Shown here piece by piece: positions 7,426-62,986 of a stretch of 64,000 bases of DNA. Where the stretch lies: NCBI GenBank assembly GCA_031520405.1, contig GCA_031520405.1_4842.1; one strand, given 5' to 3'. Positions within the stretch are counted from its first letter, which is position 1. Each line of letters opens with the position of its first letter. The notes under the pieces are model-generated. The model was not told where the DNA came from and searched no databases. It was given only the letters and a program-made list of their open reading frames with translations. The stretch comes from a phage. A program made the translations under genes and the position numbers.

Positions 7426-7434
7426 GGTTGTAAC

Positions 7435-7674: not shown

Positions 7675-7770
7675 CTCAATAGCAAAACGCAGTATAATTA
7701 CACCGTCGGAATAATTGACAAATACATTTACAGAATAGCCCGAAGGGGCGGATTATAGAGGAATATTAAA

Positions 7771-8802: not shown

Positions 8803-8808
8803 TTTCGC

Positions 8809-8835
8809 TAAAGCCCCTTCGGGGGCTTTTTAGTT
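8809..8835 (+). terminator. intrinsic terminator
   Basis: aaagcccc ttcg ggggcttttt hairpin plus T-run immediately after the gp32 stop. Confidence 0.65.
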
Positions 8836-9771: not shown

Positions 9772-9805
9772 GATGAGGACTCCATTTAAATAATATATCT
9801 GTTGA

Positions 9806-9813
9806 TATTTATA
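9806..9813 (-). promoter_or_regulatory. T4-type late promoter core (TATAAATA)
   Basis: Exact TATAAATA on the minus strand upstream of the GGAG and GTG start of gene 8830..9771. Confidence 0.5.
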
Positions 9814-9825
9814 AGGAGTTGACAA

Positions 9826-10530: not shown

Positions 10531-10536
10531 TTCTAA

Positions 10537-10572
10537 AAGCCGTTCTACGTGATAATTCGCGAACGGCTTTCT
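10537..10572 (+). terminator. hairpin, possible terminator
   Basis: aagccgttc / gaacggctt stem with a long loop after the stop of ORF 9826..10530; weak T-tract. Confidence 0.3.
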
Positions 10573-10591
10573 ATAAACATGAGGTTATGAT

Positions 10592-11338: not shown

Positions 11339-11355
11339 CACAAGCAGGGGGCTGT

Positions 11356-11643
11356 ATGAAGAAATATGTTCGCCTGAACACAGTACTGGAATCTGTAATC
11401 GAATATTTCATAATGCAGCACCTGAGAGCAGAAAATGATCATGTGAGCGATGCTTTGACTTATGACCACCGGATAGTGGTTCATTCCGTCGAAATAGTGG
11501 ACGACGAATTGTTGATTGCTAACATAGAACATGCTCTCTGGGACGAAGTTTTGGACCAGTATGTTCAACCCAAATTCACACAAATCGAGTTATCTGCCAT
11601 GTGGCCACCTGAAACAGTTTTCAATATTGATATACAAAGTTAA
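11356..11643 (+). CDS. hypothetical protein (95 aa)
   Basis: ORF from track. Confidence 0.45.
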   Translation: MKKYVRLNTVLESVIEYFIMQHLRAENDHVSDALTYDHRIVVHSVEIVDDELLIANIEHALWDEVLDQYVQPKFTQIELSAMWPPETVFNIDIQS

Positions 11644-11720
11644 TATTCACGTCAGTCCGCGCTGTTCCAGCGTTCCGTTGTCTAACACAGAAGTGTTAAC
11701 CAACTTTTCAATAAAAAGTG

Positions 11721-11749
11721 GTTTACATCTTCTAAAAAGGCAGTATATT
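11721..11749 (+). promoter_or_regulatory. candidate sigma70-type early promoter (GTTTAC-N17-TATATT)
   Basis: -35-like GTTTAC and -10-like TATATT with 17-nt spacing, preceded by an A/T-rich TTCAATAAA motif, upstream of gene 11817. Confidence 0.4.
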
Positions 11750-11816
11750 AATGTTCCAGACGCACAGTTGAACATTAGACTGCCAAAGAAGGTTACTACA
11801 CAAAAGGGTTTTTATT

Positions 11817-12776
11817 ATGTCCTATATTCTTCATATCGAGTCCGGCCTGAAATTTGAAATTGATGGTAAAACCGCTGCTGATCTTCAAGCAGAAATCAAA
11901 GGTGCAGACCTTATCATCGGCAACGTCACGTTACGCCGTATGATGGAAGGCGTCCTCCAGTCAGCCAACGGCTTTGAACTCATTGAAGGTCTGAGCCAGG
12001 AAGAGAAAGAAGAGACTCTCGAAGCTCTTGACCGCGCTGAAGCCGAAAAAGTTAAACCGACCGAAGATGCGGGGGTTAAACAGGGCGACGGTGAATCAAA
12101 TCCGGTGATTGACGCCGAAGAAACGGTTGGGCAACCTGTCGGTGATCAAAATTCCCAGACCGTCGAAGACGGTTCTCTTGAAGTCAACAAAGACGGTTCC
12201 ATTTCCCTGGTAGTTGAAGGCGAAGAAGTTCTTGACGAAGAAGCGCAAGCCCGTGCTGAAGAAGTTCGCCGTCGTATGCTGGGCACAACCGTTGCTGAAG
12301 CAATCGCCGACGTTGAAAATCCGAAGGATGATCAGGCTTTAGCGAACGCGAAGGCGGTTCTGGCCAAGAAATCTTCTGAAATGCGCCCTGCATCTTCTAC
12401 CGAAGAACGCAAGCGTCGTCATAACAAGCGTGAAGAAATGGTTGAAGCGGCTCGCGCATCCAATTATGGTCCTATCCTGGCTGCGGTTGAATCGGGGGTT
12501 GTGCCTGGGGTTTATTTGAGCTATGTGAATCCGGATATGCGCTGGTTCCAGTTCCCTGTTACCGAACTGGCAGATGAAGCCAATCCACACGCCCGCACCA
12601 ATACTTATGTTGATCTGGCGCCGATCGTTTCCGGCGGCTGGGGGTTCAGTCTGTATGTGAATGGTAAATCATTCACCAAACGCCAGAAAATCAAAGAAAC
12701 TGATGCCGAATCTCTGGTGAAAGCAATCAATGAATGGTTGCCACAGGCGTTGGCCGAAGCGAAAGCTGCTGCGTAA
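11817..12776 (+). CDS. acidic hypothetical protein (319 aa)
   Basis: Long ORF, E/D-rich central region; terminator downstream. Confidence 0.55.
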   Translation: MSYILHIESGLKFEIDGKTAADLQAEIKGADLIIGNVTLRRMMEGVLQSANGFELIEGLSQEEKEETLEALDRAEAEKVKPTEDAGVKQGDGESNPVIDAEETVGQPVGDQNSQTVEDGSLEVNKDGSISLVVEGEEVLDEEAQARAEEVRRRMLGTTVAEAIADVENPKDDQALANAKAVLAKKSSEMRPASSTEERKRRHNKREEMVEAARASNYGPILAAVESGVVPGVYLSYVNPDMRWFQFPVTELADEANPHARTNTYVDLAPIVSGGWGFSLYVNGKSFTKRQKIKETDAESLVKAINEWLPQALAEAKAAA

Positions 12777-12804
12777 TTTAATTCAGAAGCATTCAATAGA
12801 TGAA

Positions 12805-12834
12805 GGGGCTGCTATAATAGCAGCTCCTTTTGTT
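12805..12834 (+). terminator. intrinsic terminator
   Basis: ggggctgct / agcagctcc stem followed by ttttgtttatt; a TATAAT lies within the loop region. Confidence 0.55.
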
Positions 12835-12848
12835 TATTGGAGCACACC

Positions 12849-13511
12849 ATGTCGTATTCGCTCAAAGGGTTGTTGAAGCGCCCCGTACATCTATTTGTAA
12901 AACCACCTGCTGTCGAAGGGGAATATCCGGCACGAGGAGAGTTGTATTACGTTAAAGGCTCCAACGGTAGCGGCAAGTCCACTGTCCCTTCCTATCTGGC
13001 GGAGAATGATCCTCAGGCGTATGTCGTGACCTACAATGGCAAGATCATGCTCACAGTTTGCCCTTCCTATAACATTATCTGTATTGGTAAATATGACAAG
13101 TCTAAGTCTAAAGGTGTTGATTCCCTGAAAGATACCGAGCAGATGTTGTTCGCCTTGTCCATTGCTGATCAGCCGGAATATCTGAAATATGACGTGTTGT
13201 TTGAAGGAATCATCCCTTCAACTTTGCTCAGCTCATGGATTCCCCGCCTGACGCGCCCACCGCGCGAATTAGTCGTGCTCTTCATGGACACCCCGCTTGA
13301 AACCTGTGTTTCCCGTGTGAAATCACGCAACGGCGGCGCAGACTTCAATGAAAGCCTGGTTGTCGAAAAGTGGGAGAGAGTTCATGACCACCGCCAACGG
13401 CATAAAGGCTTGTTCCCTACCGTTCCCGCAGGTATGATGAAGTCCAATGGCCTGACTATAGAGCAGGCTGTTTTTGCGTTTCTCAATCGTGATTTTGGGA
13501 GTATTGATTGA
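12849..13511 (+). CDS. P-loop NTPase / kinase-like protein
   Basis: Walker A GSNGSGKST and Walker-B-like YDVLFEG; start set at the ATG with GGAG RBS (track ORF begins at an upstream TTG); first gene of the hydroxymethylase operon. Confidence 0.55.
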   Translation: MSYSLKGLLKRPVHLFVKPPAVEGEYPARGELYYVKGSNGSGKSTVPSYLAENDPQAYVVTYNGKIMLTVCPSYNIICIGKYDKSKSKGVDSLKDTEQMLFALSIADQPEYLKYDVLFEGIIPSTLLSSWIPRLTRPPRELVVLFMDTPLETCVSRVKSRNGGADFNESLVVEKWERVHDHRQRHKGLFPTVPAGMMKSNGLTIEQAVFAFLNRDFGSID

Positions 13512-14551
13512 TGGAAATTTTTGCTTTAAACAATAATGATATGCTGAAGAAGGCTGTGTTGGCCATCCGTGAACACGGCATTGAGTCAGATCCTGGCAAC
13601 GCAGAGATTAACACTGACGGCACTCGTTTCATTGATGGTGTAACAATTACAGTATCAGATCCACGTGACCGTTGGCTTTCCGTTGAAGGCCGCAACTCGT
13701 CGGCAATTGCTGCCATCGGTGAGACATTCTGGGTGTTGTCCGGACGTAATGATATCCGTTTCCTTTCGAAAGTCTTACCCCGCGCCGCCAACTTCTCTGA
13801 TGACGGTGTAACCTGGCGAGGCGCGTATGGCCCACGTCTGTACAATAATGGCCAGTTGGATAGTGTCATCAGCCGTCTGCGTAATAATCCCAACACCCGT
13901 CAGGCGTATCTCACCATCTATGATCCGGCGCTGGACTCAGATGAAGGTTTGGCCGCCCATAGTGAAACTGGAGAAGCCAAGACCAAGGACATGATCTGTA
14001 ATCTTGCTCTATTGTTCAGTATAACAGAAGGGCGATTGAATATCACTGTCATTAACCGCAGCCAAGATGTCTTGTGGGGCATGAGTTCAATCAATTTCAT
14101 TGAATTCTCTATCCTGCAAGAAGTTCTGGCGAAAGTGCTGAATGTCGAAGTTGGGTATTACAAACTGTTTTCTAACAATCTTCATTATTACAACAATGAA
14201 GTTAGTCGGAAACAACTCGGGGGTATCACTAAGAAGACCAAAACTTCTTCTGGGATGTACAATTCTTTGCTGGAATTCTCTTCAGAAAAAGTGAAGTCGC
14301 AAAAAGATATTTGTAATCTATTCCTCGGCGTGTTACATCACTGTGACATCGGCAGTGATTTTGGTAAAATCAGAGAACATCTGAAAGGATATCAAGCAGA
14401 CACGGGATTGATGATGGATATGTCATATTGCCTGTGGTGTCGCCTCAATGATACCAAAATTGACAAACGCCGTATCGCTGATGACGGTCTTCGTACTGCA
14501 TTACTGCATTCCCCTGTTGATCAGAAATTTATGTGGGGGTATGGCGAATGA
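13511..14551 (+). CDS. pyrimidine (dCMP/dUMP) hydroxymethylase, thymidylate-synthase fold, gp42-like, with about 100-aa C-terminal extension
   Basis: TRQAYLTIYDP and MICNLALLFSITEGRLNITVINRSQDVLWG parallel the T4 gp42 motifs SRRGIMIYTRP and FMCTNT...NMRSNDVVFGF (nucleophile Cys and downstream RSxD). Length 347 aa versus about 246 aa for gp42. Confidence 0.65.
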   Translation: MEIFALNNNDMLKKAVLAIREHGIESDPGNAEINTDGTRFIDGVTITVSDPRDRWLSVEGRNSSAIAAIGETFWVLSGRNDIRFLSKVLPRAANFSDDGVTWRGAYGPRLYNNGQLDSVISRLRNNPNTRQAYLTIYDPALDSDEGLAAHSETGEAKTKDMICNLALLFSITEGRLNITVINRSQDVLWGMSSINFIEFSILQEVLAKVLNVEVGYYKLFSNNLHYYNNEVSRKQLGGITKKTKTSSGMYNSLLEFSSEKVKSQKDICNLFLGVLHHCDIGSDFGKIREHLKGYQADTGLMMDMSYCLWCRLNDTKIDKRRIADDGLRTALLHSPVDQKFMWGYGE

Positions 14552-15117: not shown

Positions 15118-15659
15118 TCACAGCAGAGCATATCAAAAATCTGCTCGAACTTCAAAAGGCCACCAACGTGGCCTATTTTGGGGAAGAGTGGAAGAAGCGC
15201 TGGACCGAAGTGGCGATAGCAAACTCCATCTATCGTGAGTGGGCAGAGTTTCTAGACGAAACAACCATAGACTGGAAGATCTATGGGGGTGGTAAGCATT
15301 GGCGACAAGTGGATGCCATATACGAGTTGGTGGACGTTGTTCACTTCATGCTCTGTGCTGTCCTGCAGGAGGAAGACAAACCACACGATATTCCAGAAAT
15401 GGTGAGATTCGTTCAGGCGCAGCCAATTCAAACCCCTCACGACCTCAGGAAAGTGACTGAACTGTTCACGTATTTCATGTCACACCCTCTTCGGAATGTT
15501 TTGGCTACCTTCTTGGCGTGTGCTTGTGGTTATCTAGGACTGGACGCCGAAACTTACATGCTGGCACACAAACGCAAAAATGATCGCAATCGGCTGCGTG
15601 CTGCTGGCGGTGCGAACTACGATAAGTCCGCAGAAACCCCTCTGACCCTGGAGTTCTAA
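15114..15659 (+). CDS. dCTPase/dUTPase-like all-alpha NTP pyrophosphatase (gp56-like)
   Basis: ELVDVVHFMLCAVL resembles the T4 gp56 ELVDIFHFVLNMFVGL core; start overlaps the upstream stop. Confidence 0.5.
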   Translation: MITAEHIKNLLELQKATNVAYFGEEWKKRWTEVAIANSIYREWAEFLDETTIDWKIYGGGKHWRQVDAIYELVDVVHFMLCAVLQEEDKPHDIPEMVRFVQAQPIQTPHDLRKVTELFTYFMSHPLRNVLATFLACACGYLGLDAETYMLAHKRKNDRNRLRAAGGANYDKSAETPLTLEF

Positions 15660-16189
15660 TGTTTACAGTTGTCGTATCATATTATGCGGAACATGCCCCG
15701 CGCATGGCAGAGAACTTCGCTGAGTTTATTAAACCAGGCGGTCATGTCGTTATTGCGACCAATTTCAAGAAAGAGCCAGATGGTGCGGCTACTGTAACAC
15801 AACATATTACAACCAAAGAGCCGGAAACACTTTTTAAACGCATTGAAGATTTTGCTTTTGGCGGGGAAGAAATTCCAGAGTCATTACAGCATATCTATTT
15901 TGAAGATGCGATATATTATGTTCATGCTATTCCAAAGGATGTTACAACTGAACAAATGATGTATATCCTGAATATCGCATTGAATGTTTCTTGTGTCAAC
16001 AGGGCACAGCACAATCGTCTGCGTAATATGTATTTAACAGAACGCGGGGGTTCCGAAATTAACGATGAAAAACTCCCGTCAATAATGGCGATTCATGAAG
16101 CAATCAATATATTGTCCAAGAAAGTCTTGGGCACCGATTTATTAATTACGATCAACAAGCAAGAGGAAACGAAATGGCCGATTCATTGA
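15659..16189 (+). CDS. hypothetical protein (176 aa)
   Basis: ORF from track, translationally coupled (TAATG) to the upstream gene. Confidence 0.5.
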   Translation: MFTVVVSYYAEHAPRMAENFAEFIKPGGHVVIATNFKKEPDGAATVTQHITTKEPETLFKRIEDFAFGGEEIPESLQHIYFEDAIYYVHAIPKDVTTEQMMYILNIALNVSCVNRAQHNRLRNMYLTERGGSEINDEKLPSIMAIHEAINILSKKVLGTDLLITINKQEETKWPIH

Positions 16190-21131: not shown

Positions 21132-21341
21132 ATGGAATGTTCATGCGGAGGGCAAGGCACAAGTGCATACTTGCCATTTAACACCGTGAAGGAAGCCGAA
21201 GAAGCCGGATATGCCGTGGATAAGGCTCCCTGTGTAATCGCCACCAAGGATTGTCCGTGCTGTAAGAGGCACTCTCAGGACGTTTGGTATGCCCCAGAAG
21301 CAAAGGGCAAAATTAATTTATTGAATATGATGAGGAAGTAA
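21132..21341 (+). CDS. small Cys-rich protein (69 aa)
   Basis: CSCGG ... CPCCK cysteine pairs suggest a zinc ribbon. Confidence 0.45.
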   Translation: MECSCGGQGTSAYLPFNTVKEAEEAGYAVDKAPCVIATKDCPCCKRHSQDVWYAPEAKGKINLLNMMRK

Positions 21342-34153: not shown

Positions 34154-34816
34154 CTATGATAACTCATGGCGATGTCGAACACACGCAGGGCAATCACAAT
34201 TCTTTTTCAAAATTGGCAATTCACACCATGTCATTAAGTCATGTATTGGGGACATGTGATGATAGAACCAAGATTTCTTGAGACTAATCAATGGATATAA
34301 AATTTCAATAGGTCTTTCCCCGTCTCTGGTCATCATGTTGTACCCTTCAATGACTTTATTAAAGGCGGGTATCCAGTGTATTGCGTCATCGCCGTTAACA
34401 TATGCCAATATATACGTGGAAGGCAAGCTCCTGCCTTTAAATTGCGTGTTTAATAACCATATCGGGGCTTGTGCTAAACAAGAGCGAAAACCACCGTTCG
34501 GGACGTTGATGCTACTGATAGGTTCTTGATGATGTGTCCAACGATACATGAGAAGTGGGGCATTTTTATTAATCCAGTTGTGTATTTTATTCCTCGCCCA
34601 ATTTTCGCGCTTAGATTTAAATTTATTATTTTCGAGGTGGCAATACACAGTATGAACTGAATATCCTTTCGATAACAACCAAATCAACATGTATGTGCTA
34701 TCCACCCCACCAGACCAGAACAACGTCACTTCTTGATTATTCTCCGGTAATGGAGCATCCCCTTGAAGAACACGGTATACAAAATCACAATCAGATACTG
34801 AGACAACAATTTCCAT
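34154..34816 (-). CDS. QueC-like PP-loop ATPase with C-terminal zinc ribbon
   Basis: PP-loop LFWSGGVDSTYML (SGGxDS) near the N-terminus and C-terminal C-x8-C-x-C-x2-C followed by R (CELPILKKNCDCPACVRHR), as in QueC; 220 aa. Confidence 0.5.
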   Translation of the reverse strand: MEIVVSVSDCDFVYRVLQGDAPLPENNQEVTLFWSGGVDSTYMLIWLLSKGYSVHTVYCHLENNKFKSKRENWARNKIHNWINKNAPLLMYRWTHHQEPISSINVPNGGFRSCLAQAPIWLLNTQFKGRSLPSTYILAYVNGDDAIHWIPAFNKVIEGYNMMTRDGERPIEILYPLISLKKSWFYHHMSPIHDLMTWCELPILKKNCDCPACVRHRHELS

Positions 34817-53406: not shown

Positions 53407-54516
53407 TTAAAACAAACGTTTATAAGTTCGACCATTGTACTGCATGCGGCCTAATATGAAAACTGCGGTAAAAGGGATACATCCAAACAGCACGACGATA
53501 ATCACTTCCCAAGTTTTAAGATCTCGCCATTTCAGATATTCCATTTCCTTCATCTCAACTCGGTTGTATCCCTTACTGATATTGACCGCAACTTCTTGGA
53601 ACACGGATATACCCATTGGTTTCCCAGTCAATGAAAGTCCGTTACGAGAATGGAGTTCCATGTTGTTCATGCCGTCGGCAAATGACGTAGACTTACCCCA
53701 ATTAATTTTCATATCCTTTGAAATATCGGTGACTACAATAACATCGTTCTTTTTACCGCCGGACCATGCATATAGAAGTCCCTGAAAATATTCAACAGGC
53801 TGGCCAGAAGTCACAACCCAAACGATATTAACCTGACGTGAAGCACCTAATGTTTTCAGAGTGTCGTTCAGATAATCATTCCAGTAATCAACAGGAATGT
53901 CCATCCCTGACATATTCAGAACACGGGTTACTCGGTAATAATCATACACCCTTGGATATGAAGGGATATGCTCTTTGAAATTCTCAGCGAATTGCTGGTC
54001 AGATTTAGAGAATAATGAATCTTTGTTGCCCAGCACATAATTCATATATGAATGTTCACGTGCCGCAGGTTCCCCGATTTTAACTTGTGCCCAACGCGGA
54101 GGCTCTGTAGTACCCTGACGATCAATACGGTCAATGCTCAGATCACCGACGGTTGTTAATACGTCCCAATCAACGTCATAAGAGTGCTCATAGCATGTGC
54201 TGCAATGACGCGTTTGTGTACAAGATCGGTTATTTCCTGAACCAGAGCAAGATGTTGTGTAATAGCACATACATTCATAAGAATGTTCACAACCCACCTT
54301 ATTCCGTTGCTTATCAGTTACATATCCATTCAAAATTTCCACGTCCCCAGAACTACCAAGGGAGAAAGCAGCATATAATCCCGACTGGATAAGGCAAGAC
54401 AATACGATAACAATGGCCGTGGCGATCAAAGTCTCCTTTGGCTCATGAGTCTTGCGGTGATATATCACAAACAAGATGGCCAAAATTACAGGAACCACAA
54501 ACAGAAGGTAAATCAT
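53407..54516 (-). CDS. membrane protein with Cys-rich module, LemA-associated
   Basis: 369 aa: two N-terminal TM helices, an 8-Cys cluster (CEHSYECMCYYTTSCSGSGNNRSCTQTRHCSTCYEH), a large soluble domain and a C-terminal TM helix; immediately upstream of the LemA-like gene. Confidence 0.5.
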   Translation of the reverse strand: MIYLLFVVPVILAILFVIYHRKTHEPKETLIATAIVIVLSCLIQSGLYAAFSLGSSGDVEILNGYVTDKQRNKVGCEHSYECMCYYTTSCSGSGNNRSCTQTRHCSTCYEHSYDVDWDVLTTVGDLSIDRIDRQGTTEPPRWAQVKIGEPAAREHSYMNYVLGNKDSLFSKSDQQFAENFKEHIPSYPRVYDYYRVTRVLNMSGMDIPVDYWNDYLNDTLKTLGASRQVNIVWVVTSGQPVEYFQGLLYAWSGGKKNDVIVVTDISKDMKINWGKSTSFADGMNNMELHSRNGLSLTGKPMGISVFQEVAVNISKGYNRVEMKEMEYLKWRDLKTWEVIIVVLFGCIPFTAVFILGRMQYNGRTYKRLF

Positions 54517-55321: not shown

Positions 55322-55364
55322 TTGCAAAAAGAAAGGGGAACGGGCTAATAATAACCCATTCCCC
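55322..55364 (-). terminator. GGGG hairpin terminator with flanking TTCAATAAA motif
   Basis: ggggaacggg / cccattcccc imperfect stem; on the minus strand it is followed by tttcttttt; near-identical architecture to the element at 52104. Confidence 0.5.
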
Positions 55365-55392
55365 TTTATTGAAGAACGCAATCGCAATCAGA

Positions 55393-55560
55393 TTACTTTT
55401 TCTTCAGCTCGTCCAGTTTGGCTTCGATTTGTTCCAGGATGTCTTTACCCTTCTGAACAATCACTTCACCGTCTTGCGCGTGTTTACGGAAGACCAGAGC
55501 GCCAGCTACGAAGCCGACAACAACGCCAGGAAGCGCGTACACCAACAGATCTTGTAACAT
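55393..55560 (-). CDS. small membrane protein (55 aa; below ORF-track size cutoff)
   Basis: Hand-translated ORF MLQDLLVYALPGVVVGFVAGALVFRKH... with GAGGA RBS 8 nt upstream; hydrophobic N-terminus; terminator immediately downstream. Confidence 0.4.
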   Translation of the reverse strand: MLQDLLVYALPGVVVGFVAGALVFRKHAQDGEVIVQKGKDILEQIEAKLDELKKK

Positions 55561-55596
55561 GATAATATCCTCACTTTATAGGTGAGGATATTTATA

Positions 55597-56832
55597 TCAG
55601 CGCTTCAACAAAGACATGAGGTTTACACTGGTCGACTTCGGATTGTCCTCTATCTTTCGGACGGGCATTTTCAGATTAGTGTAAACCTCAGATGGTTCCC
55701 AACGCGTACCCTGCTGCAGGTGCCATATATGTAGAGGAACACCCGTCTCAAAGAACACAGGCATCTTCCACTTCTGGACGCCAGGAACGTGCCCTGTAGG
55801 AGCTTTTTCGCACAACAGGGTATCTGGTAGCCAGAGGGAACGGGCTTCCCAGAGAGGCGCACAGGAGTATTCAGGCCAAATACGCTCCATATAATCGATC
55901 TCGTCCCATGTACGCTCGGCGTCCCACCCGATGTAACGGGTATTCTTCAGTCGGAAGAATTTCTTCAGCCAACAAGCACCGGAGGTCTCAAAGTTCAGAC
56001 GATTGATAAACGTGATGTGGCCGAACTCTTCAACGCATTCCTGAAATGCTTTCTCAAGGTCGGTTTCGAGTATATCACATTCTTCGTCTGTAATAGGACA
56101 ACCGTTGATCTTTTTCTTCCCGTGCTTGGTCACCCAGTCGTCACGGTTTGACAAGAATGCCGCGCCGTTGCGGTTGGACTCGCTGCCATCGCGGTCACGC
56201 AACATGAAGCCAGGGACGTCTATATCCCATATGTTACCGAAGACCATGTTCAGGGCTTCCAGGAAGTTCCATGCGCTCAGGCGACCGAAGTATTTCCATG
56301 ACATCGCCGTATTCCACAGTTCAGTGAACTGGTCTTCCTTGGTAGTGCATTCCAACATCCAACGAAAAGAATCCATTTGGGTTTTACCACCCAACCAATC
56401 GATATAGGACTGAACGCACGGAATCATCTTCGACTTACGATAACGACAATCTGTATCGAAGCGCATACGATCAAAGTTCAGGTTATACCAATCAGAAAAT
56501 CGCTGAAACTCTTTCGGAGATTGTGGGGGTACAGGAAATTCACTGTAAATTGTCCATGGTCCAATCCCATTATAGCAACAACCCCACAAAAAGGCCATCC
56601 AAATCTTGCGCTCGATCTTCTCGAGCTGTGTGATGCCTTCTGTAACCTCTATGGCATAATCCATCAGACGGACTTGCTGGTTATGCTCTTCAGTGTAGGA
56701 TAGCGCCTCCACCCATGCCTTGAGCAGGTACATGCGATTTTCTGGCTTACGATAATCTACTGCCAGATCAATCGGGTATTTCCATTTTTCAGGGGCTTTA
56801 TATCCCTGCGGCATTTTAGAAATGTGTATCAT
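55597..56832 (-). CDS. hypothetical protein (411 aa), Trp/Cys-rich, candidate enzyme of unknown function
   Basis: Long conserved-looking ORF with no motif I can assign; co-oriented with a P-loop kinase-like gene and small membrane proteins. Confidence 0.55.
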   Translation of the reverse strand: MIHISKMPQGYKAPEKWKYPIDLAVDYRKPENRMYLLKAWVEALSYTEEHNQQVRLMDYAIEVTEGITQLEKIERKIWMAFLWGCCYNGIGPWTIYSEFPVPPQSPKEFQRFSDWYNLNFDRMRFDTDCRYRKSKMIPCVQSYIDWLGGKTQMDSFRWMLECTTKEDQFTELWNTAMSWKYFGRLSAWNFLEALNMVFGNIWDIDVPGFMLRDRDGSESNRNGAAFLSNRDDWVTKHGKKKINGCPITDEECDILETDLEKAFQECVEEFGHITFINRLNFETSGACWLKKFFRLKNTRYIGWDAERTWDEIDYMERIWPEYSCAPLWEARSLWLPDTLLCEKAPTGHVPGVQKWKMPVFFETGVPLHIWHLQQGTRWEPSEVYTNLKMPVRKIEDNPKSTSVNLMSLLKR

Positions 56833-57014
56833 CCGATTTTACTCCCGAGTTCAACACGGAACGCCAGATAGAAGAAAGTGGCGATCGATACAGGACATAT
56901 CACCAAGAATGGGCGCTGTTGCACCCCTTCTGTGACCATGACGCCGACCAGCGAAACCGTAAAGATAACGAACATCAACATCATGAAGATAAAATCAACC
57001 TGCTTGATTTTCAT
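56829..57014 (-). CDS. small membrane protein (61 aa)
   Basis: Two hydrophobic helices. Confidence 0.4.
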   Translation of the reverse strand: MKIKQVDFIFMMLMFVIFTVSLVGVMVTEGVQQRPFLVICPVSIATFFYLAFRVELGSKIG

Positions 57015-57381
57015 CTTTCGCTTCCTCTACAGGAGAAACAACTTCAGGCTCAGCTTCGGGAGCCAGCTGAATTTCTTCGGGGCTTACTACGGGCTGTCCC
57101 AGAGACCAGATAGGCAGGAAACGACGATCATTCGTCACCAACCAAATTTGCTTGGCGGTTTTCGTCTTTTCGGAAATAAAATGCTGGGCATTGACTTGGG
57201 TACGAGCCAAACCCACCTGACGCCAAGAACCGAAATCCTTAGAAGAAGGATTGGTATTCAGTTGAAATTGTGGGACGATTTTATTCTGTTCCGGATAATA
57301 ACGGACAGCGTTAATCATCTTCGCATCACCACGGTAATCAATAGCAACAGCGACAACGTTGCGTGGAATGAGGATTTTCAT
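56995..57381 (-). CDS. hypothetical protein (128 aa)
   Basis: ORF from track. Confidence 0.45.
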   Translation of the reverse strand: MKILIPRNVVAVAIDYRGDAKMINAVRYYPEQNKIVPQFQLNTNPSSKDFGSWRQVGLARTQVNAQHFISEKTKTAKQIWLVTNDRRFLPIWSLGQPVVSPEEIQLAPEAEPEVVSPVEEAKDENQAG

Positions 57382-57382
57382 T

Positions 57383-57586
57383 TTAATTCCTTTTGAAACT
57401 CTGAATTATGTTATAGACGAAAGGCGTTAATAAGATAGCACCCCCCAAATAATATAACGCGTAAACGTTCAATATTTCGGTTGAATCCAACTCAACGATG
57501 CCCAAATATTTCATGACACCGACAAGCACAGCTGTGATACACATCACCAATCCGACGAACACAAAATATTTAGACATCTGTTTCAT
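57383..57586 (-). CDS. small membrane protein (67 aa)
   Basis: Two hydrophobic helices. Confidence 0.4.
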   Translation of the reverse strand: MKQMSKYFVFVGLVMCITAVLVGVMKYLGIVELDSTEILNVYALYYLGGAILLTPFVYNIIQSFKRN

Positions 57587-57588
57587 TT

Positions 57589-58494
57589 CTAACCCTTACT
57601 CAACAGGCCGAGAAGGGATACAGAGGACTTTGTTACCTCTCCCTTGGCGCTCGCCTTGGTTTTAGATTTGGTCGCCTTCTCAGGGACTCGATGCGCTAGA
57701 GGATCATCCCCACCGACTTCACGCGTCATTGGGTCAGTTTCACAGAATCCGTAGAAATCTTTGATGTCCAGACCCATGGCGTGAAACTCACCACGCATTT
57801 GATGATGAATAGCGTTGCCAATCACCCACAAAGGTGCATCAAACGGCATCATGGCTAATTCGCTATCATTTCCTGTTTTGAATTCTTGAGTGTTTGTAGA
57901 CGATTGGCGATACAACACGTCTTGACCGCTGTAATCATTGACCACCACTTCCCAACCCAGCGCCAGCATTTCAGTCTTCGACTTCTCAAACTCCTTGGAG
58001 TAAGATTCGTTGCGTGACCAGCCGGAGTCCCCCGCTTCCTTACCAGAGCGTCCACGGATGCGAGCATCGTACTGATAGCGGTCAGGGTATGCAAAGTACA
58101 GCAGTGCCAGTGATTCAATCGGATAGTTCTTGAACATCCATTCAGGACGCCATTTATCCGACAACATGAGGGGTTCACCCTCGCACACCAAAGTGTAACC
58201 CTGAGCCAGCCAGCCTTTGACCAGATCACGGGCGATATCACCCGAGCCTGTGGCGGCGTGGATGGCGTCCATGGAAGTCCAGGAAGCCAGACCGGATTTG
58301 TTGGACACAGTATACTGGCCAACGAAGATTAACTTCAGCTCTTCGAATTTCAGACCGAATGGGCGCGTCTTGTCACCAATGGTGTAGGTGAGTTCAGTAG
58401 GCTCCAGCTTAGTTCGGAGCCATTCGATGAACTGGACCACTCTCGTACCCTTGCCCACGCCACTTGTTCCCTTCACTACAATTATTTTAGCCAT
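57589..58494 (-). CDS. P-loop kinase-like protein (adenylate-kinase-type GxxGxGKGT) with C-terminal extension
   Basis: N-terminal VVKGTSGVGKGT Walker A of the NMP-kinase type; about 130 extra C-terminal residues of unknown fold. Confidence 0.55.
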   Translation of the reverse strand: MAKIIVVKGTSGVGKGTRVVQFIEWLRTKLEPTELTYTIGDKTRPFGLKFEELKLIFVGQYTVSNKSGLASWTSMDAIHAATGSGDIARDLVKGWLAQGYTLVCEGEPLMLSDKWRPEWMFKNYPIESLALLYFAYPDRYQYDARIRGRSGKEAGDSGWSRNESYSKEFEKSKTEMLALGWEVVVNDYSGQDVLYRQSSTNTQEFKTGNDSELAMMPFDAPLWVIGNAIHHQMRGEFHAMGLDIKDFYGFCETDPMTREVGGDDPLAHRVPEKATKSKTKASAKGEVTKSSVSLLGLLSKG

Positions 58495-58835
58495 TATGCA
58501 TCTTCCTCAATACGCCAGCTCACACCGCCCATCCATGGTGCCCAGAACACAGCAACCTGTGGGCGGCCATTCTCTTCAAACTTCACTTTATACTGGTCGT
58601 CGAAGTTATAGAAAATTTCATCGTCATCTGGTGCCATACCGTTTTCTATCAGAACACGCTTTAACTCCAGCGCCGCACCAACGGAAGTGGGTGTGGTTTG
58701 TTTACGAATGAAGTTGTTCACATGGATAATAACGCCATCCATATCGCTATCACCGGAACGCTTGTCTGGGGTTTCCCCAAACTTGGATTGTTCTTGCACG
58801 ATGTCCTCCTCAATGGACGTATTGATAATGGCCAA
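58494..58835 (-). CDS. hypothetical protein (113 aa)
   Basis: ORF from track; acidic. Confidence 0.45.
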   Translation of the reverse strand: MAIINTSIEEDIVQEQSKFGETPDKRSGDSDMDGVIIHVNNFIRKQTTPTSVGAALELKRVLIENGMAPDDDEIFYNFDDQYKVKFEENGRPQVAVFWAPWMGGVSWRIEEDA

Positions 58836-59592
58836 TCAGGCGGTTCACCACTTCGACAATATTGCGGTTCAGGAAGTCGAAGTGGTTCTGGCCTTCTACT
58901 GGTTTAATATAAAGCATATCTTCCGAGTTCGAAAGATCCAGTTTTTCATAATTTCCCTGAGGAACAAAGATGACAAAAATATTGTTCATCGCACAGGGTT
59001 CAACGTATTTCGGGTTATCATCAATTAAAACATCACCTGCCAAAAGATGCTTTTCGTCGGTGCTGACAAACCCGTTGAAGATGCCAGGGAACTTGTCATA
59101 GACAAACTGGCGCTTGCTGCGCTCGTGTTCTGGCTCACACTTAGATACTGCGATCAATTCAACATTTTCAAAGTCTTCGAGAAGGATCTTCTTCAGATTC
59201 ACCAGGAACTCGTAAGCGCCTGGAAGCGGGTTCATCTTGGCATACAGGTCCGGCATGCGCCACCAATCCATAGGATCACGTCCTGTAGGTGAATCCATCC
59301 ATTGACCAGCAACAAACACACGGCGCGTCAACCATGCTGGGTGAGCGCGTTCCCGCATGAGGATCGCCAAATCACCAGCATGAGCCATATAGCACTCTTT
59401 GGTGATACGCTGGAAATCATTGGGATAATCATGACAACCCATGTTTTCAGCAGCAGCTTTTGAATTGGAAATATTAAACCAATCCACCCAAGGGGAGAGG
59501 CTATCAACCAAAGTCAAGTCTACGTCTACCAGGATACGATACATTCCACCGATTTTAGAATTGGCATCATACAGACCAACATGATTATTCAT
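58810..59592 (-). CDS. HAD-superfamily 5'(3')-deoxyribonucleotidase-like protein
   Basis: HAD motif I VDVDLTLVD (DxDxT) near the N-terminus and a DD motif (GDVLIDDN) near the C-terminus; start set at the ATG with GGAGAAG RBS. Confidence 0.5.
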   Translation of the reverse strand: MNNHVGLYDANSKIGGMYRILVDVDLTLVDSLSPWVDWFNISNSKAAAENMGCHDYPNDFQRITKECYMAHAGDLAILMRERAHPAWLTRRVFVAGQWMDSPTGRDPMDWWRMPDLYAKMNPLPGAYEFLVNLKKILLEDFENVELIAVSKCEPEHERSKRQFVYDKFPGIFNGFVSTDEKHLLAGDVLIDDNPKYVEPCAMNNIFVIFVPQGNYEKLDLSNSEDMLYIKPVEGQNHFDFLNRNIVEVVNRLIGHYQYVH

Positions 59593-59929
59593 CAGACTTC
59601 TCCACTTGATCATAACCAGTTGCGGTGCATTGCTCTTCTGTGCAATCTGCATACAGAACCACAGAAGATTCCTTCACGTAAGTGGTACAGTGATAGGTTT
59701 CATCTTCCTGGATGGAATCGTCATAATTGCAAACAGTTTGCAACGGACCAGGAGTGGTGTTATCCAACGCAGCATGTGCCTTGATGGTGTCTTCCATCTT
59801 ATTCACCGCTTGCTGATTGGTGAACGTCGGCGCATCGAGGTCAACAGTAGACGCAACGTCCAGAAGGGTAGAGCATGCAGTGGTAGAGAAAGCCAGAGCA
59901 CACACCAGAAGAATCTTATTGAGTTTCAT
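59585..59929 (-). CDS. predicted lipoprotein
   Basis: MKLNKILLVCALAFSTTAC: signal peptide with a lipobox-like Cys; 114 aa. Confidence 0.45.
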   Translation of the reverse strand: MKLNKILLVCALAFSTTACSTLLDVASTVDLDAPTFTNQQAVNKMEDTIKAHAALDNTTPGPLQTVCNYDDSIQEDETYHCTTYVKESSVVLYADCTEEQCTATGYDQVEKSDE

Positions 59930-59957
59930 AACAATACCTGTTGTCAAAGGGATAACA

Positions 59958-59990
59958 GGGGGAATTATATCCCCCTTTGGTTTATTGAAT
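59958..59990 (-). terminator. GC hairpin with flanking TTCAATAAA motif
   Basis: ggggga attata tccccc stem directly downstream of the DNA polymerase stop; motif TTCAATAAA between the stop and the hairpin on the minus strand. Confidence 0.4.
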
Positions 59991-62986
59991 CAACCTTTCT
60001 TGCCCATCATGGACAACAGATTAACTCGACGTTTATGAGACCAACCAACCACATCCAAGATAGACTGAATTGGCTCTATAAAGGTCTTTTCAAACGTGGT
60101 GTGGTAATCCACCCATTTATCCAATCCCAATTCTGGAGGAAGGAAGTCAGGGAAGGCTATGCGATCATTCCCCACAGGATTGCCAGGTTTCAGGTTGATG
60201 ATTTTAACCTTATCGCCAGATTCGATAGGGGGAAGACCGAGATCTTCGTGCTTATCGATCAGCTTGTTGTACATAATACAAGCCTTGGCAGCAAAGTGCG
60301 TACCGCTGATGTAATTCCCGTTCGCGTCTAACCACTTCTCAATATCGCTCACACCAGATGCCTGAGCGATATCATCCACGGTGAGTTCCATATATTCCTT
60401 TTTGTATCCAGCGATTAATTCCTGAACCTCTGCCTCAGTACCGAGCAGGACTTTCTCATAACATTTAACCAGACGCTCACGACACCACTCAGGAGTGGTT
60501 GATTTACGCGCTTCCAGACCTTTGAATTTGATCTTTGGTTTCTCATACTTGATGCCTTCGCTATCGTATACTGCCATACAATACATCTTCTTGGCTCGCC
60601 ATACAGCAGACGATGCGATGACCTCACGTTCCCAGACCATGCGCTGCTCAAACCCGTTCATGGTATTACACAACAACTGCGCCCATTCACTGGTTTTTGG
60701 CTGGTAATTCTCTTTGATCCATTGGTCAATGTTATCAACGAGTTTGTGATGGTCCTTTTCTTCAGGCCACAATTGCTTGACCAGGCGTTCAATGCAAATG
60801 TAGTTGGAGTCTGTATCACCTGCGATAACAAAATCCTGACCAGTGGTGCCACAAAGTTTGTTCAGATAATCATCAGTGTGGCGTTTGTTCCATTTATTGA
60901 TCAGCTGGCCGGAAGTGGTAATTGCTTCAGCGATGTTGATGTTGAAGTATTCTTTAAACCAGACGTTAGAAATTGCACCATATCCTGCGTTCATCAAGAT
61001 CTTCAGACCTTGTTGTAACGTATCTTGGGCAACTCCCAAATCTTCCCACTTGTGCATGACTTCAGTCAGGTGATCAAGGTCGATATGCTTGTGTTCTTCA
61101 TACCATTCAGGATCGTAGAAACGAGACTTCATGGCAGATTCAAGGTGGAAATCACCTTTAGACATTTCCTTACACCAACCAGCCCATTGCTCATACTTCA
61201 GGCCAGTTGCTTTCTCTCCTTTACGGTCAGCGTATATGCCTCGCATAATTTCGGAAAGGAAAGACATCTTCTCATTACTGAAGAATTGAACGTTCGGGGT
61301 AAACGAAACGTTATATCGACGTAATGTTTCAAAATGGAATTCACCCAGCGCGACCAATTCATCAACAACTTGTATGCGTTCATCAATAGCACGCTGCAGC
61401 TTGTCGTGAAGATTTTTGAGATGACGGCGCTTGTTCATAGGCGTTGTCATATCATTCATCGCTTTGGTCAATTCTTCACACATGGACTCAATGATATCGC
61501 GACGTGTGTGCTTGTCAGAAACGATAGTCTCAGGACCAAGGTTGTATTGCTGTATGATGTGGGGATACAGGGAGTTTAAGTCCTCAGAGAATACCCAGAA
61601 ATATATCCCTGGTGCAACCTCCATGACATATGCGCCTTCAAAGTCCGTTGGACCATCATATACACGCTGTATTTTAGGGACAATCCCCTTTTCATAAAGA
61701 CGATAGTAACACATCGCCAGCCATGGTGCTACAGTCCCAAGACCGTCTTCATAGTTAGATTTGGTGCGATACGCCAATACGAACATCAGCTGTATCAAAC
61801 GCAGCTTTTGTTCTAAACGCCACACGAGTTTGACGTCTTTGATACCATATCGGGTGTGTTTGCAATAATCATTAAAATATAGATCATACAATGACTTGCT
61901 TTCACTATAATCCAACTTCTTCTCACCGAGTTCACAATAAGCGATCCAATCCAGTGAGTATTTTTCGCGGGTTGTGTACGTGTGTTTCTTGTAAACTTGC
62001 ATGTAGTCCATCATAGGACAACCCACGAATTGATAAGAAGTCACGTCGCCTTTACGGTCTTTGATGAAACGTTTCTTGAGTTTGCCCCAAGGACTGAGGC
62101 GCTCTGCCTGGGTTTCGCCGAGAACCTGCGTAATACGTTCAACCAAGTACGGGCTATCAAACGTTTCGATGTTCCAGCCAGTCCAACCATCAAATTGACG
62201 TTCAGACCAATAATCTAAGAAGGCGCGAAGAAGTTCTTGTTCAGTCGTGTATTCTTTGTATTCAACCTCAAGACCACCTATCTCTTCATCATTTGGATCA
62301 TATTTGAATTTATGGCGATCCTTAGAACACGGCATACCCCAGACATAGAACTTGTTGGTGTTCATGTCTTGAAGCTGGATGAGCGTAATAGGGAAGGCGG
62401 CATTCATGTTCTGTGTGATCTTCCCATTACTATCAATGATAGGGAACTGGTCAGTCACGTTGTTGGAAATAAAGGAACCTGGGAAATGCTCTCGAACGAA
62501 ATCATGGTTGGCCAACACTTGCTTATGGAATCGGCGAACACGCGCCTCACTCCCCTTAAACGTGTGGGATTCAATCGTCGCGTGAGGAAATGGGCCTTTA
62601 GTCATTTCTCCATCGCGCCACCCAGCCGAGAAAACTTCGATATCCACGTTGGCGATGTGAATATTTGAGTAATCGGGGGTAATCATCCCAGGAAAACTAT
62701 GCGCTATGAATTGATATGCATAATCCGTTTGTCCGTAAACGGCAGCGCCTTCGACCTCCTTATATTCCTCCAGATAGTTGTCGGCGTCACGCATTGACGC
62801 AAATTTTTTAGACACCAACGGTTCATTGAGGAGGCCAATCTTTTCAACTTTGGAATAATCGGCTGTGGGTAAATACAAGGTGGGTTCGAATTTCTTACGC
62901 AACATACGGCGATTGCCGTTGTCGTCTGCAATACGAATCAGAAGGTCGTTACCCTGTCGGGCAACGTTCGTATAGAAAACAGTCAT
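59990..62986 (-). CDS. 43: DNA polymerase (family B), gp43
   Basis: Exo I (IANVDIEV), motif A region (KILMNAGYGAIS), motif C (AGDTDSNYI) and an N-terminus collinear with T4 gp43 (MTVFYTNVARQGN vs MKEFYISIETVGNN); start set at the ATG with GGAG RBS, giving 999 aa. Confidence 0.9.
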   Translation of the reverse strand: MTVFYTNVARQGNDLLIRIADDNGNRRMLRKKFEPTLYLPTADYSKVEKIGLLNEPLVSKKFASMRDADNYLEEYKEVEGAAVYGQTDYAYQFIAHSFPGMITPDYSNIHIANVDIEVFSAGWRDGEMTKGPFPHATIESHTFKGSEARVRRFHKQVLANHDFVREHFPGSFISNNVTDQFPIIDSNGKITQNMNAAFPITLIQLQDMNTNKFYVWGMPCSKDRHKFKYDPNDEEIGGLEVEYKEYTTEQELLRAFLDYWSERQFDGWTGWNIETFDSPYLVERITQVLGETQAERLSPWGKLKKRFIKDRKGDVTSYQFVGCPMMDYMQVYKKHTYTTREKYSLDWIAYCELGEKKLDYSESKSLYDLYFNDYCKHTRYGIKDVKLVWRLEQKLRLIQLMFVLAYRTKSNYEDGLGTVAPWLAMCYYRLYEKGIVPKIQRVYDGPTDFEGAYVMEVAPGIYFWVFSEDLNSLYPHIIQQYNLGPETIVSDKHTRRDIIESMCEELTKAMNDMTTPMNKRRHLKNLHDKLQRAIDERIQVVDELVALGEFHFETLRRYNVSFTPNVQFFSNEKMSFLSEIMRGIYADRKGEKATGLKYEQWAGWCKEMSKGDFHLESAMKSRFYDPEWYEEHKHIDLDHLTEVMHKWEDLGVAQDTLQQGLKILMNAGYGAISNVWFKEYFNINIAEAITTSGQLINKWNKRHTDDYLNKLCGTTGQDFVIAGDTDSNYICIERLVKQLWPEEKDHHKLVDNIDQWIKENYQPKTSEWAQLLCNTMNGFEQRMVWEREVIASSAVWRAKKMYCMAVYDSEGIKYEKPKIKFKGLEARKSTTPEWCRERLVKCYEKVLLGTEAEVQELIAGYKKEYMELTVDDIAQASGVSDIEKWLDANGNYISGTHFAAKACIMYNKLIDKHEDLGLPPIESGDKVKIINLKPGNPVGNDRIAFPDFLPPELGLDKWVDYHTTFEKTFIEPIQSILDVVGWSHKRRVNLLSMMGKKG

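Follow-up and report, generated by a model that had tools for sequence, protein, structure and literature searches.

The closest described system is the 5-NeOmdU pathway of Salmonella phage ViI, in which gp243 and gp247 work together with gp67, gp160 and gp226 (Lee et al. 2018 PNAS, PMC5889632; Lee et al. 2021 NAR, PMC8989533). The ViI thymidylate-synthase-like protein was described as a hydroxymethyltransferase (PMC5889632). In vitro, gp243 showed kinase activity on 5-hmdU in DNA and yielded a phosphorylated nucleotide of 418 u, and purified gp247 acted as a serine:DNA transferase on kinase-treated 5-hmdU DNA (PMC8989533). Activity of gp247 was lost in the Cys-to-Ala as well as in the Glu-to-Ala mutant. 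A further relative of this transferase is gp46 of Pseudomonas phage PaMx11, a 5-PmdU glycinyltransferase known as PUGT (PDB 8Z2M/8Z2N; PMC11472151).

The window analysed here is a stretch of 64,000 nucleotides from a phage (GCA_031520405.1), colinear over its whole length with ViI, which belongs to the same genus. It possesses a minus-strand gene block at 55597-59592, and Kuttervirus genomes 99% identical to this block were found. Adjacent genes of the block either share 1 to 20 bases or lie 1 to 10 bases apart. With a probability of about 0.9, the block represents the already characterised kinase and transferase pair of the ViI type, which forms the post-replicative half of the pathway. The initial annotation had guessed a thymidine hypermodification module from gene content, and on this reading the guess was right; it is supported by profile matches and by 86% and 91% identity to gp243 and gp247, respectively, both with published in-vitro activity. 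The gene order, polymerase, DUF7292, HAD, DUF7254, kinase, small genes, transferase and 55-aa gene, is the same as in ViI, except that the interval between kinase and transferase holds two annotated genes in ViI and three here. The transcription unit probably begins near 59990 and ends at a strong terminator-like hairpin on the minus strand at 55332-55367 (16 pairs followed by a T run). A unit of that extent would probably also take in the 55-aa gene and the gene of a DUF7292 lipoprotein-like protein (59585-59929, minus strand; Pfam PF23964, E 2.9e-53), which was delimited by hydropathy and a start-codon check and has a signal-peptide-like N-terminus, MKLNKILLVCALAFSTTAC.

The kinase gene (57589-58494, minus strand) encodes a protein of 301 aa, earlier read as an adenylate-kinase-type P-loop protein and proposed as a possible 5-hmdU DNA kinase. 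The profile search bore out this proposal. The protein matches Pfam PF18747, 5-hmdU DNA kinase 2 (HMUD2), with E 2.5e-150 and 500.1 bits (gathering cut-off 25). The match places residues 1-300 of 301 on profile positions 1-298 and is thus full length; the roughly 130 aa taken earlier for a C-terminal extension belong to the HMUD2 profile and do not form a separate part. Residues 6-17 read VVKGTSGVGKGT and include the Walker A motif GTSGVGKGT (residues 9-17), which is conserved in the orthologue gp243 of ViI (YP_004327565; 86% identity). From this identity, the 301-aa protein is predicted to phosphorylate 5-hmdU within DNA in an ATP-dependent manner. The orthologues are labelled guanylate kinase in RefSeq and PHROG 4409 bears the same name, which would fit a conventional guanylate or nucleoside-monophosphate kinase with free nucleotides as substrates, beside a 411-aa protein from an unrelated family. 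We give this reading practically no chance, as it is already contradicted by the full-length HMUD2 match and by the activity of the ViI orthologue on 5-hmdU within DNA. No nucleotide-kinase family matched the protein up to E 0.1 in the Pfam search, NCBIfam gave no match to it, and the 411-aa protein has family and structural matches of its own.

The 411-aa protein (55597-56832, minus strand) contains 22 Trp and 11 Cys residues. It had been thought to hold no assignable motif, which proved wrong, as residues 49-292 match Pfam PF18724, amino acid:DNA transferase (ADDT, aGPT-Pplase clade 2), with E 1.9e-57 and 195.1 bits (gathering cut-off 26.2). The HMM searches with kinase and aGPT-Pplase profiles and the structural prediction suggested in the initial annotation gave matches to HMUD2 and ADDT and an all-helical helix-hairpin-helix glycosylase-like fold as in PUGT (8Z2M), and the candidacy of this protein as the transferase is confirmed by the ADDT profile. 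It is the orthologue of ViI gp247, with 91% identity. The catalytic motif is E282-T283-x3-C287; among 57 homologues, E282 and T283 never vary, and the conservation of C287 is at least 90%. C287 aligns one column after C247 of PaMx11 gp46 (ETSGAC versus ETILC; E243, T244 and C247 in PaMx11). By its identity to gp247, the enzyme would transfer L-serine through the hydroxyl to 5-PmdU in DNA. Members of the family move glycine, serine or putrescine (Table 1 of PMC8989533), and 9% of the transferase residues are unlike gp247, so that a real module installing a group other than that of ViI, for example another amino acid, may be considered. This is highly improbable, because most of the differences fall within the N-terminal 25 residues and residues 145-205, and the protein agrees with gp247 in the catalytic motif and at almost every family-invariant position. 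The transferase is also 100% identical in Escherichia phage PhaxI and Salmonella phage vB_SenAc-pSK20, 5-NeOmdU is present in both ViI and CBA120, which are Kutterviruses (PMC11721090), and the matching PLP decarboxylase is retained in the closest relative.

The hydroxymethylase operon named earlier as the partner of the block was found in the window on the plus strand. It is composed of the gene of 5-hmdU DNA kinase 1 (HMUD1, the ViI gp67 orthologue; 12837-13511; Pfam PF18748, E 1.7e-116) and a thymidylate-synthase-family gene (13508-14551; Pfam PF00303, E 1.3e-14), which occupies the position of ViI thyA (orf00066) and is taken to encode the dUMP hydroxymethyltransferase making 5-hmdUMP. Among the ViI-type gene set, the hydroxymethyltransferase, the 5-hmdU DNA kinases and the serine transferase are therefore in the window, and the decarboxylase and the gp160 paralogue map outside it. 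The PLP decarboxylase, orthologue of gp226, would be about 3 kb past the window end; in the 99%-identical phage SJ3 it is situated at the expected place and is 93% identical to gp226. Completeness of the pathway thus rests on near-identical relatives.

The steps of the pathway are established for the ViI orthologues, and the 86-91% identity to these allows the same steps to be proposed for this phage. The thymidylate-synthase-like enzyme would make 5-hmdUMP, and the family-B polymerase of the phage would insert 5-hmdU in place of T. The HMUD2 kinase would then transfer the ATP gamma-phosphate to the 5-hydroxymethyl of 5-hmdU in DNA, giving 5-PmdU. The 411-aa transferase is expected to flip this base into its helix-hairpin-helix glycosylase-like pocket, where C287 would attack C6 and the phosphate would leave to form an exocyclic methylene. 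Addition of the side-chain hydroxyl of free L-serine to this methylene would give 5-O-serinylthymidine, from which the PLP decarboxylase would take off CO2 to form 5-(2-aminoethoxy)methyl-dU. This base shields DNA against many restriction enzymes. The same Pfam families are present here as in the ViI 5-NeOmdU pathway, and no functional difference from it was detected by sequence comparison.

The first gene of the block (58810-59592, minus strand) encodes a HAD-superfamily, NT5C-like 5'(3')-deoxyribonucleotidase of 260 aa from the MNNHVG start. Its earlier identification as an NT5C-like nucleotidase from VDVDLTLVD (residues 22-30) agrees with the DxDxT and DD motifs, the Pfam match and the fold. 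Motif I (D23-V-D25-L-T27) and motif IV (D191-D192) are invariant among 31 homologues and correspond in an alignment to lvDmDgvlaD and liDDrP of the mitochondrial enzyme, and the nearest folds are 3bwv and 6g2n. The match to Pfam PF06941 (NT5C) scored 32.7 bits (gathering cut-off 24.8) and covers only residues 130-223 of a 280-aa reading. Compared with the NT5C family (human cdN and mdN; Staphylococcus 3BWV), the protein differs in this partial Pfam coverage and in having about 80 residues inserted after motif I, ahead of the core (30-110). It would act as an NT5C-type deoxyribonucleotidase on free nucleotides and probably shapes the pyrimidine pool; its membership in the pathway is tentative, and phages in which hypermodification is not known can have NT5C-like genes as well. 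A direct role in hypermodification, either as a phosphoserine phosphatase supplying serine or as a phosphatase of 5-PmdU in DNA, where phosphate removal would hold the modification to about 40% of T, is improbable. In both sequence and fold it matches 5'(3')-deoxyribonucleotidases best, the protein has no polymerase-like tail, unlike the DNA-acting enzymes described below, and a five-protein ViI lysate mixture made 5-NeOmdU with no phage HAD protein added.

Three small membrane proteins had also been assigned to the block. Two of them lie inside it, namely a 61-aa protein with two hydrophobic segments above the threshold used (56829-57014, minus strand; phrog_7943 'membrane protein') and a 67-aa protein with one such segment and a weaker second stretch by eye (57383-57586, minus strand; phrog_4514). 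The third, a 55-aa single-helix protein encoded by the last gene of the unit (55393-55560, minus strand; phrog_3879), is situated just outside. Vibrio relatives lack the 67-aa gene in the interval from kinase to transferase. These membrane proteins appear to have been inserted in particular lineages and have no evident part in the chemistry. Hydropathy distinguished two hydrophilic proteins, one of 128 aa with no hydrophobic segment (56995-57381, minus strand; phrog_4163, E 4e-77) and a soluble DUF7254 protein of about 101 aa from a GTG start (101 or 113 aa; 58494-58799 or 58494-58835, minus strand; Pfam PF23912, E 1.3e-52). In Serratia, Erwinia and Vibrio relatives, a small gene is likewise located between the HAD gene and the kinase gene, at the position of the DUF7254 gene.

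A possibly new side observation concerns the C-terminal peptide of the DNA polymerase, which recurs at the end of the kinase, the transferase, ViI gp160 and a small zinc-ribbon protein. The polymerase, a family-B enzyme of 998 aa resembling T4 gp43 (59990-62986, minus strand; Pfam DNA_pol_B and DNA_pol_B_exo1), ends in RRVNLLSMMGKKG (59993-60031). The kinase tail, SVSLLGLLSKG (57592-57624, minus strand), follows a Lys/Ser/Thr-rich linker and was identified by six-frame scans and lineage co-variation. The transferase tail, SVNLMSLLKR (55600-55629, minus strand), follows a disordered linker (residues 393-403, pLDDT below 50 in the predicted model). The Cys-rich zinc-ribbon-like protein of 69 aa, orthologue of ViI Vi01_049c (21132-21341, plus strand), ends in KINLLNMMRK. 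Six-frame scans of the whole ViI genome found the strict motif only at the C-termini of the polymerase, gp243, gp247 and the zinc-ribbon protein. All tails are within the last 13 residues. They change in step in all these proteins across four lineages with a readable polymerase tail, and in three further lineages the enzymes have a tail in common that is peculiar to them. The classes co-varying within genomes are the NLLSMM, K[KR]LW, SLxDFF and xxLW types, with a mean similarity of 21.3 within a genome versus 6.6 between classes. The zinc-ribbon homologue Vibrio p0210 (E 3e-5) carries the Vibrio-type tail KQTKRLW. HMUD1 has no polymerase-like tail, as checked at the C-termini of the ViI and Vibrio homologues. 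Synonymous codons of the tails differ between genes of one genome, hence selection acts on the peptide.

We lean slightly towards the view that the tails of kinase and transferase, placed after a flexible linker, dock on a gp45-type sliding clamp, in which case modification would follow the replication fork. Like the clamp-binding C-terminal peptides of T4/RB69 gp43, gp33 and gp55 (Geiduschek and Kassavetis 2010, PMC2988020), they are short and hydrophobic, form the very end of the protein after a variable linker, and have the same motif as the cognate polymerase tail. BLASTP of the polymerase to T4 gp43 reaches the last residues, aligning RVNLLSMMG residue for residue with KASLDFLFG of the clamp-binding peptide in the same L-x-x-hydrophobic-hydrophobic pattern. 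The T4 peptides are hydrophobic and acidic, whereas in Kuttervirus and Vibrio the tails have Lys and Arg as flanking residues; L013 (EELSLFDF) is the only acidic class. This basic character, the lack of an NLLSMM-type tail on ViI gp33 and gp55, and one Vibrio record in which the 'LW stop' codons share bases with an annotated start codon would suit another origin, in which the peptide is real but docks elsewhere (ssDNA-binding protein, the polymerase itself or a protease adaptor) or is a by-product of overlapping translation signals. We consider this rather unlikely, since, besides the polymerase alignment and the codon differences, most tails have no overlapping downstream gene, a Vibrio gp33 homologue carries a similar tail (KTRKLF), and ADDT proteins lacking the tail are found in small phages, with no T4-type replisome gene seen in their neighbourhood.

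With docking on the clamp as the favoured reading, the locus resembles T4 in that one peptide is common to the polymerase and other clamp clients. T4's own glucosyltransferases have no such tail, and in a 2025 preprint the claimed clamp interaction of the T4 alpha-glucosyltransferase was not reproduced. The candidate clients here are DNA base-modifying enzymes, unlike those of T4; Kuttervirus has basic tails, and in marine lineages the last two residues are LW. In eukaryotes, DNMT1-PCNA couples DNA methylation to replication. Although the two cases differ in enzymes, clamp and chemistry, and binding in the phage is predicted, a base-modifying enzyme would in both cases be recruited to new DNA through a short clamp-binding peptide.

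The gene block at 55393-59947 belongs to a known thymidine hypermodification system, whose biochemistry has been worked out in Salmonella phage ViI, a member of the same genus, so the finding itself is ordinary. The only part of it that may be new is the presence of polymerase-like C-terminal tails on the modification enzymes. The block consists of densely packed minus-strand genes, overlapping by 1-20 bases or separated by gaps of 1-10 bases, and is situated immediately downstream of the family-B DNA polymerase gene (59990-62986, minus strand). Its transcription unit probably ends at 55332-55367, where there is a hairpin of 16 pairs with a T run. The promoter scan gave 16 sites, a number close to the 15.0 expected from shuffled sequence, so no promoter is claimed. 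NCBIfam and PADLOC scans of the block returned nothing useful. Many Kuttervirus genomes, among them those of Salmonella phages KFSST3, SJ3 and SeSz-1 and Escherichia phages FEC14 and PhaxI, share 98-99% identity with the block, which has matches in 271 phage records altogether. In reverse orientation, the window is colinear with the part of ViI (NC_015296) that begins at about 51.2 kb, crosses the origin of the record and finishes at 144.1 kb.

The initial annotation had proposed a thymidine hypermodification module, and the family matches of the kinase and the transferase together with their identity to ViI enzymes support it; the motifs it quoted are present in the block. The 301-aa P-loop protein (57589-58494, minus strand), suspected to be a 5-hmdU DNA kinase, matches Pfam PF18747 (HMUD2, 5-hmdU DNA kinase 2) over its full length with E 2.5e-150 and is 86% identical to ViI YP_004327565 (gp243). 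ViI gp243, M6 gp54 and ViI gp67 all turn 5-hmdU in DNA into a phosphorylated nucleotide of 418 u (Lee et al. 2021, PMC8989533). No sequence relative of this kinase was found among solved structures, and HMUD1 and HMUD2 of the window are scarcely alignable (22% identity, E 0.05).

The 411-aa protein (55597-56832, minus strand) is indeed rich in Trp and Cys (22 and 11 residues). It had been put forward as the transferase candidate with no assignable motif; the candidacy is borne out and the lack of a motif is not, as it matches PF18724 (ADDT, amino acid:DNA transferase) with E 1.9e-57 and is 91% identical to ViI YP_004327568 (gp247). Purified gp247 attaches L-serine to kinase-treated 5-hmdU DNA; the product is 5-O-serinylthymidine, a synthetic N-linked isomer having been ruled out, and mutation of a conserved Cys or a nearby Glu abolishes activity (PMC8989533). 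An AlphaFold2 model built from an alignment of 57 homologues was confident (mean pLDDT 92.6), and Foldseek of this model against solved structures found nothing significant. Single-sequence and profile searches of PDB sequences did not reach the 5-PmdU glycinyltransferase PUGT (Pseudomonas phage PaMx11 gp46), and pairwise BLASTP between the two was not significant. The active-site residues of PUGT are E243, T244 and C247 (PMC11472151), and E282, T283 and C287 of the transferase correspond to them, with the Cys shifted by one alignment column (ETSGAC versus ETILC). In the 57-homologue alignment, E282 and T283 never vary, and conservation of C287 is 90% or higher. The catalytic Cys of the Kuttervirus transferases (ETSGAC) stands one column after that of PaMx11 gp46 and the mycobacteriophage homologues (ETxLC), and the Vibrio phage transferases have Cys at both positions (ETSLCC).

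The other pathway genes of the window correspond to the suggested hydroxymethylase operon. A gp67-type HMUD1 kinase (12837-13511, E 1.7e-116) adjoins a thymidylate-synthase-family gene (13508-14551), and next in line are a weak match to a P-loop kinase, in the position that 'dnk' takes in ViI, and a dUTPase_2 gene. Beside these pathway genes, the window encodes a phage ACT-like domain protein (15659-16189, plus strand), next to dUTPase_2, and a QueC/ThiI-like PP-loop ATPase at 34154-34816 (minus strand). The window does not extend to the genes for the PLP decarboxylase gp226 and for gp160, the second HhH protein. In phage SJ3, 99% identical over the block, a decarboxylase 93% identical to gp226 is found about 3 kb beyond the polymerase gene. 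Given the high identity of the kinase and the transferase to the ViI enzymes, the mechanism in the window phage would follow the published ViI scheme. As a gene-function call this adds little, being one more Kuttervirus with the characterised ViI enzymes, while the routine annotations of the kinases and the transferase are corrected. Public labels are misleading: 'terminase small subunit' is attached to HMUD1 kinases and 'guanylate kinase' to HMUD2 kinases, and the transferase appears as 'hypothetical protein' or, in one record, as a thioredoxin-like protein. The loci concerned are ViI Vi01_061c and Vi01_196, PaMx11 gp49 and the window genes at 12837-13511 and 57589-58494; 'guanylate kinase' in RefSeq for the gp243 type is a historical misnomer.

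Gene arrangement varies between lineages. The module of Vibrio phage 1.244.A fits inside about 9 kb, in the order polymerase, HAD, 92-aa gene, HMUD2, ADDT, gp160-like, HMUD1 and TS-like. In marine Ackermannviridae-like phages (1.244.A, 3147-13161; L011; the 141-kb contig L020) the hypermodification set of HAD, HMUD2, ADDT, gp160-like, HMUD1 and TS-like genes forms one contiguous cluster beside the polymerase, while the Kuttervirus set is scattered over three loci. HMUD2 is present as a tandem pair of genes in L020, and locus L014 encodes an HMUD2 of 537 aa whose N-terminal extension is long. Elsewhere, ADDT homologues adjoin Tet/JBP-type oxygenases, Ploopntkinase3 kinases and ParB-like proteins (Mycobacterium phage Heath, 1-3465; L013, 8616-11734; L021, 7860-11077). 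These loci resemble the T-dioxygenase systems described recently in phages, in which 5-hmU is made on DNA and not from dUMP; the Heath oxygenase is annotated as 'queuine tRNA-ribosyltransferase'. Vibrio phage 1.244.A has its kinase and transferase genes side by side; the 67-, 128- and 61-aa genes are therefore enterobacterial-lineage-specific insertions outside the core of the system. Three small membrane proteins had been counted in the block; the 61-aa and 67-aa products are membrane proteins, the 128-aa and the approximately 101-aa products are hydrophilic, and a third, one-helix protein of 55 aa lies just outside the stretch for which they had been counted. Just downstream of the module and in the same orientation, 53407-54516 (minus strand) encodes a Cys-rich protein of 369 aa, hydrophobic at both termini, whose ViI orthologue is labelled 'host lysis protein'.

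The HAD protein (58810-59592, minus strand) has a Pfam NT5C match above the cut-off with partial coverage. In HMMER alignments its motif I (lvDvDltlvD) and motif IV (liDDnPk) align with 3bwv, a bacterial deoxyribonucleotidase-like protein, and with human mitochondrial 5'(3')-deoxyribonucleotidase, and the catalytic residues of both motifs are invariant in 31 homologues. Its gene keeps the position between polymerase and kinase in Serratia, Erwinia and Vibrio Ackermannviridae, and NT5C-type genes are also found near ADDT genes in other lineages. Because 5-NeOmdU was made in lysate mixtures by five ViI proteins that did not include it, it is treated here as a nucleotide-pool enzyme linked to the module. 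5-hmU Bacillus phages induce a dTMP 5'-nucleotidase, which a dTMP-directed role would echo; the parallel sits badly with the Tet/JBP-type phage L013, which has an NT5C-type gene too.

The transferase ends in ...TSVNLMSLLKR (coded at 55600-55629), the kinase in ...SSVSLLGLLSKG (57592-57624) and the polymerase in ...RRVNLLSMMGKKG (59993-60031). The consensus in the window is V-[NS]-L-[LM]-x-[LM]-[LM] followed by basic residues. The strict motif occurs on these three proteins, and a looser pattern adds the 69-aa Cys-rich orthologue of ViI Vi01_049c (gene 21132-21341), which has Ile for Val. A six-frame scan of the complete ViI genome (ORFs totalling 154,707 residues) for V[SN]L[LM][GS][LM][LM] gave four occurrences, on the polymerase, gp243, gp247 and the 70-aa Cys-rich Vi01_049c, every one within the last 16 residues of a protein. 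A looser copy ends ViI gp160 (...GSVNLLDRLKKPE). The motif is missing from about twenty replication and recombination proteins; in ViI the NLLSMM-type tail was not found on gp33, gp55, ligase, RNase H, helicases, gp32 or clamp-loader subunits, nor on kinase 1, the PLP decarboxylase, the TS-like enzyme or the HAD protein. The product of 21132-21341 (plus strand) is a small zinc-ribbon-like protein (MECSCGG...CPCCKRH...) with a polymerase-type tail, and may be an unrecognised replisome or clamp-associated factor. The gene for its Vibrio homologue, which has the tail of that lineage, is directly upstream of DNA ligase.

The tail differs between phage lineages and stays the same within each genome (ViI and loci L009-L020). 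In Serratia phage 3M the polymerase, kinase and ADDT end in KKRVNLLSMMGKR, KSSNLLAMLLRNKK and KSVNLLSMLGGKK, and in Erwinia phage Bue1 in RRVNLMAMLKKQQDKG, RTNSILRHFGASK and KSNNLLSLFGR. Vibrio phage 207E48.1 has NKSKRLW on the polymerase, AKTKRLW on the kinase, KTRKLW on ADDT, ATKRLW on the protein of the gp160-like/HMUDK_hel class (gp160-like below) and KQTKRLW on the Vi01_049c homologue; 1.244.A has K[KR]LW on its four proteins. In the L020 contig the polymerase has TSALW, the two kinases TNDLW and KSSLW, ADDT ENALW and the gp160-like protein ENSLW. In L013 the tails are EETVSLEDFFS (polymerase), EEILEFFDIFH (a kinase of Ploopntkinase3 type, not HMUD2) and EEELSLFDF (ADDT), with no gp160-like protein annotated nearby. 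Three loci do not include the polymerase: L012 has TTKNVFDIF (kinase), TNANVLDFFG (ADDT) and TTKSILDLL (gp160-like), L014 has TTASLSGFFGN, STANLNAFFS and STTKSVFDI in the same order, and L019 has STARPLFD on ADDT, TTASVFDLI on the gp160-like protein and STAKPLF on a 122-aa protein, its fused 615-aa kinase having no tail. ADDT proteins of small phages (PaMx11, contig L021) have no tail, and no T4-type replisome gene was seen near ADDT in L021.

In a 7-residue BLOSUM62 comparison of polymerase with enzyme tails, the mean score was 21.3 within genomes (n = 24) versus 6.6 between tail classes (n = 128), a descriptive difference and not a probability, as the genomes are related. In the whole 207E48.1 genome a C-terminal [KR][KR]LW occurs in 6 of 1552 ORF segments; five belong to the polymerase, kinase, ADDT, gp160-like protein and Vi01_049c homologue and the sixth is an unannotated opposite-strand ORF. 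The K-R-L-W-stop tails could be a by-product of ribosome-binding sites or start codons of overlapping downstream genes. This was rejected because the genes do not use the same codons and, for most tails, no start lies next to them. Within one genome the conserved Leu is coded by CTC, TTA, CTG or TTG and Arg by CGC, AGG, CGT or AGA, so that selection acts on the peptide and not on overlapping translation signals.

From these sequences, the tailed enzymes and the polymerase probably share a docking partner. The alignment of the window polymerase with T4 gp43 extends through the C-terminus, where RVNLLSMMG is paired with KASLDFLFG. In T4, gp43, gp33 and gp55 have similar C-termini that bind the gp45 sliding clamp, can replace one another and are attached by variable linkers, and the RB69 clamp was crystallised with the polymerase C-terminal 11-mer (PMC2988020). 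The tails of the proteins described above show L-x-x-hydrophobic-hydrophobic spacing or an L-W/F ending, the transferase tail is preceded by a disordered linker in the model, and the gp33 homologue of the Vibrio phage, with 37% identity to the ViI protein, ends in KTRKLF. Since the DNA-acting enzymes carry the putative clamp-binding tail of the polymerase, they would work as sliding-clamp clients, and this is the simplest reading of the tails on DNA-acting hypermodification enzymes. We give a probability of about 0.55 to kinase 2, ADDT and the gp160-type paralogue being clamp clients acting directly behind the fork in thymidine-hypermodifying phages with a T4-type replisome. Neither primary paper on the pathway (PMC5889632, PMC8989533) mentions the clamp, and full-text literature searches linking clamp and hypermodification returned nothing relevant. 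If the tails bind the clamp, they would provide a concrete, testable mechanism coupling post-replicative base hypermodification to replication, and an easy sequence-based way of recognising DNA-acting modification enzymes in the genomes of other phages. Clamp tethering could also help explain why only some of the thymidines are modified. The tails offer a direct experimental handle on this coupling.

Comparison with T4 also gives points against clamp binding, as the Kuttervirus and Vibrio tails are basic while those of T4 are acidic, and ViI gp33 and gp55 lack the NLLSMM-type tail. The T4 glucosyltransferases have no gp43-like tail. Clamp tethering of T4 glucosylation is an old proposal which has recently been disputed, the proposed clamp interaction of the alpha-glucosyltransferase not being reproduced in a 2025 preprint. 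The tailed enzymes of the hypermodifying phages would, if the clamp reading is true, make a clear example, supported by sequence, of a phage pathway for DNA modification that is linked to the clamp.
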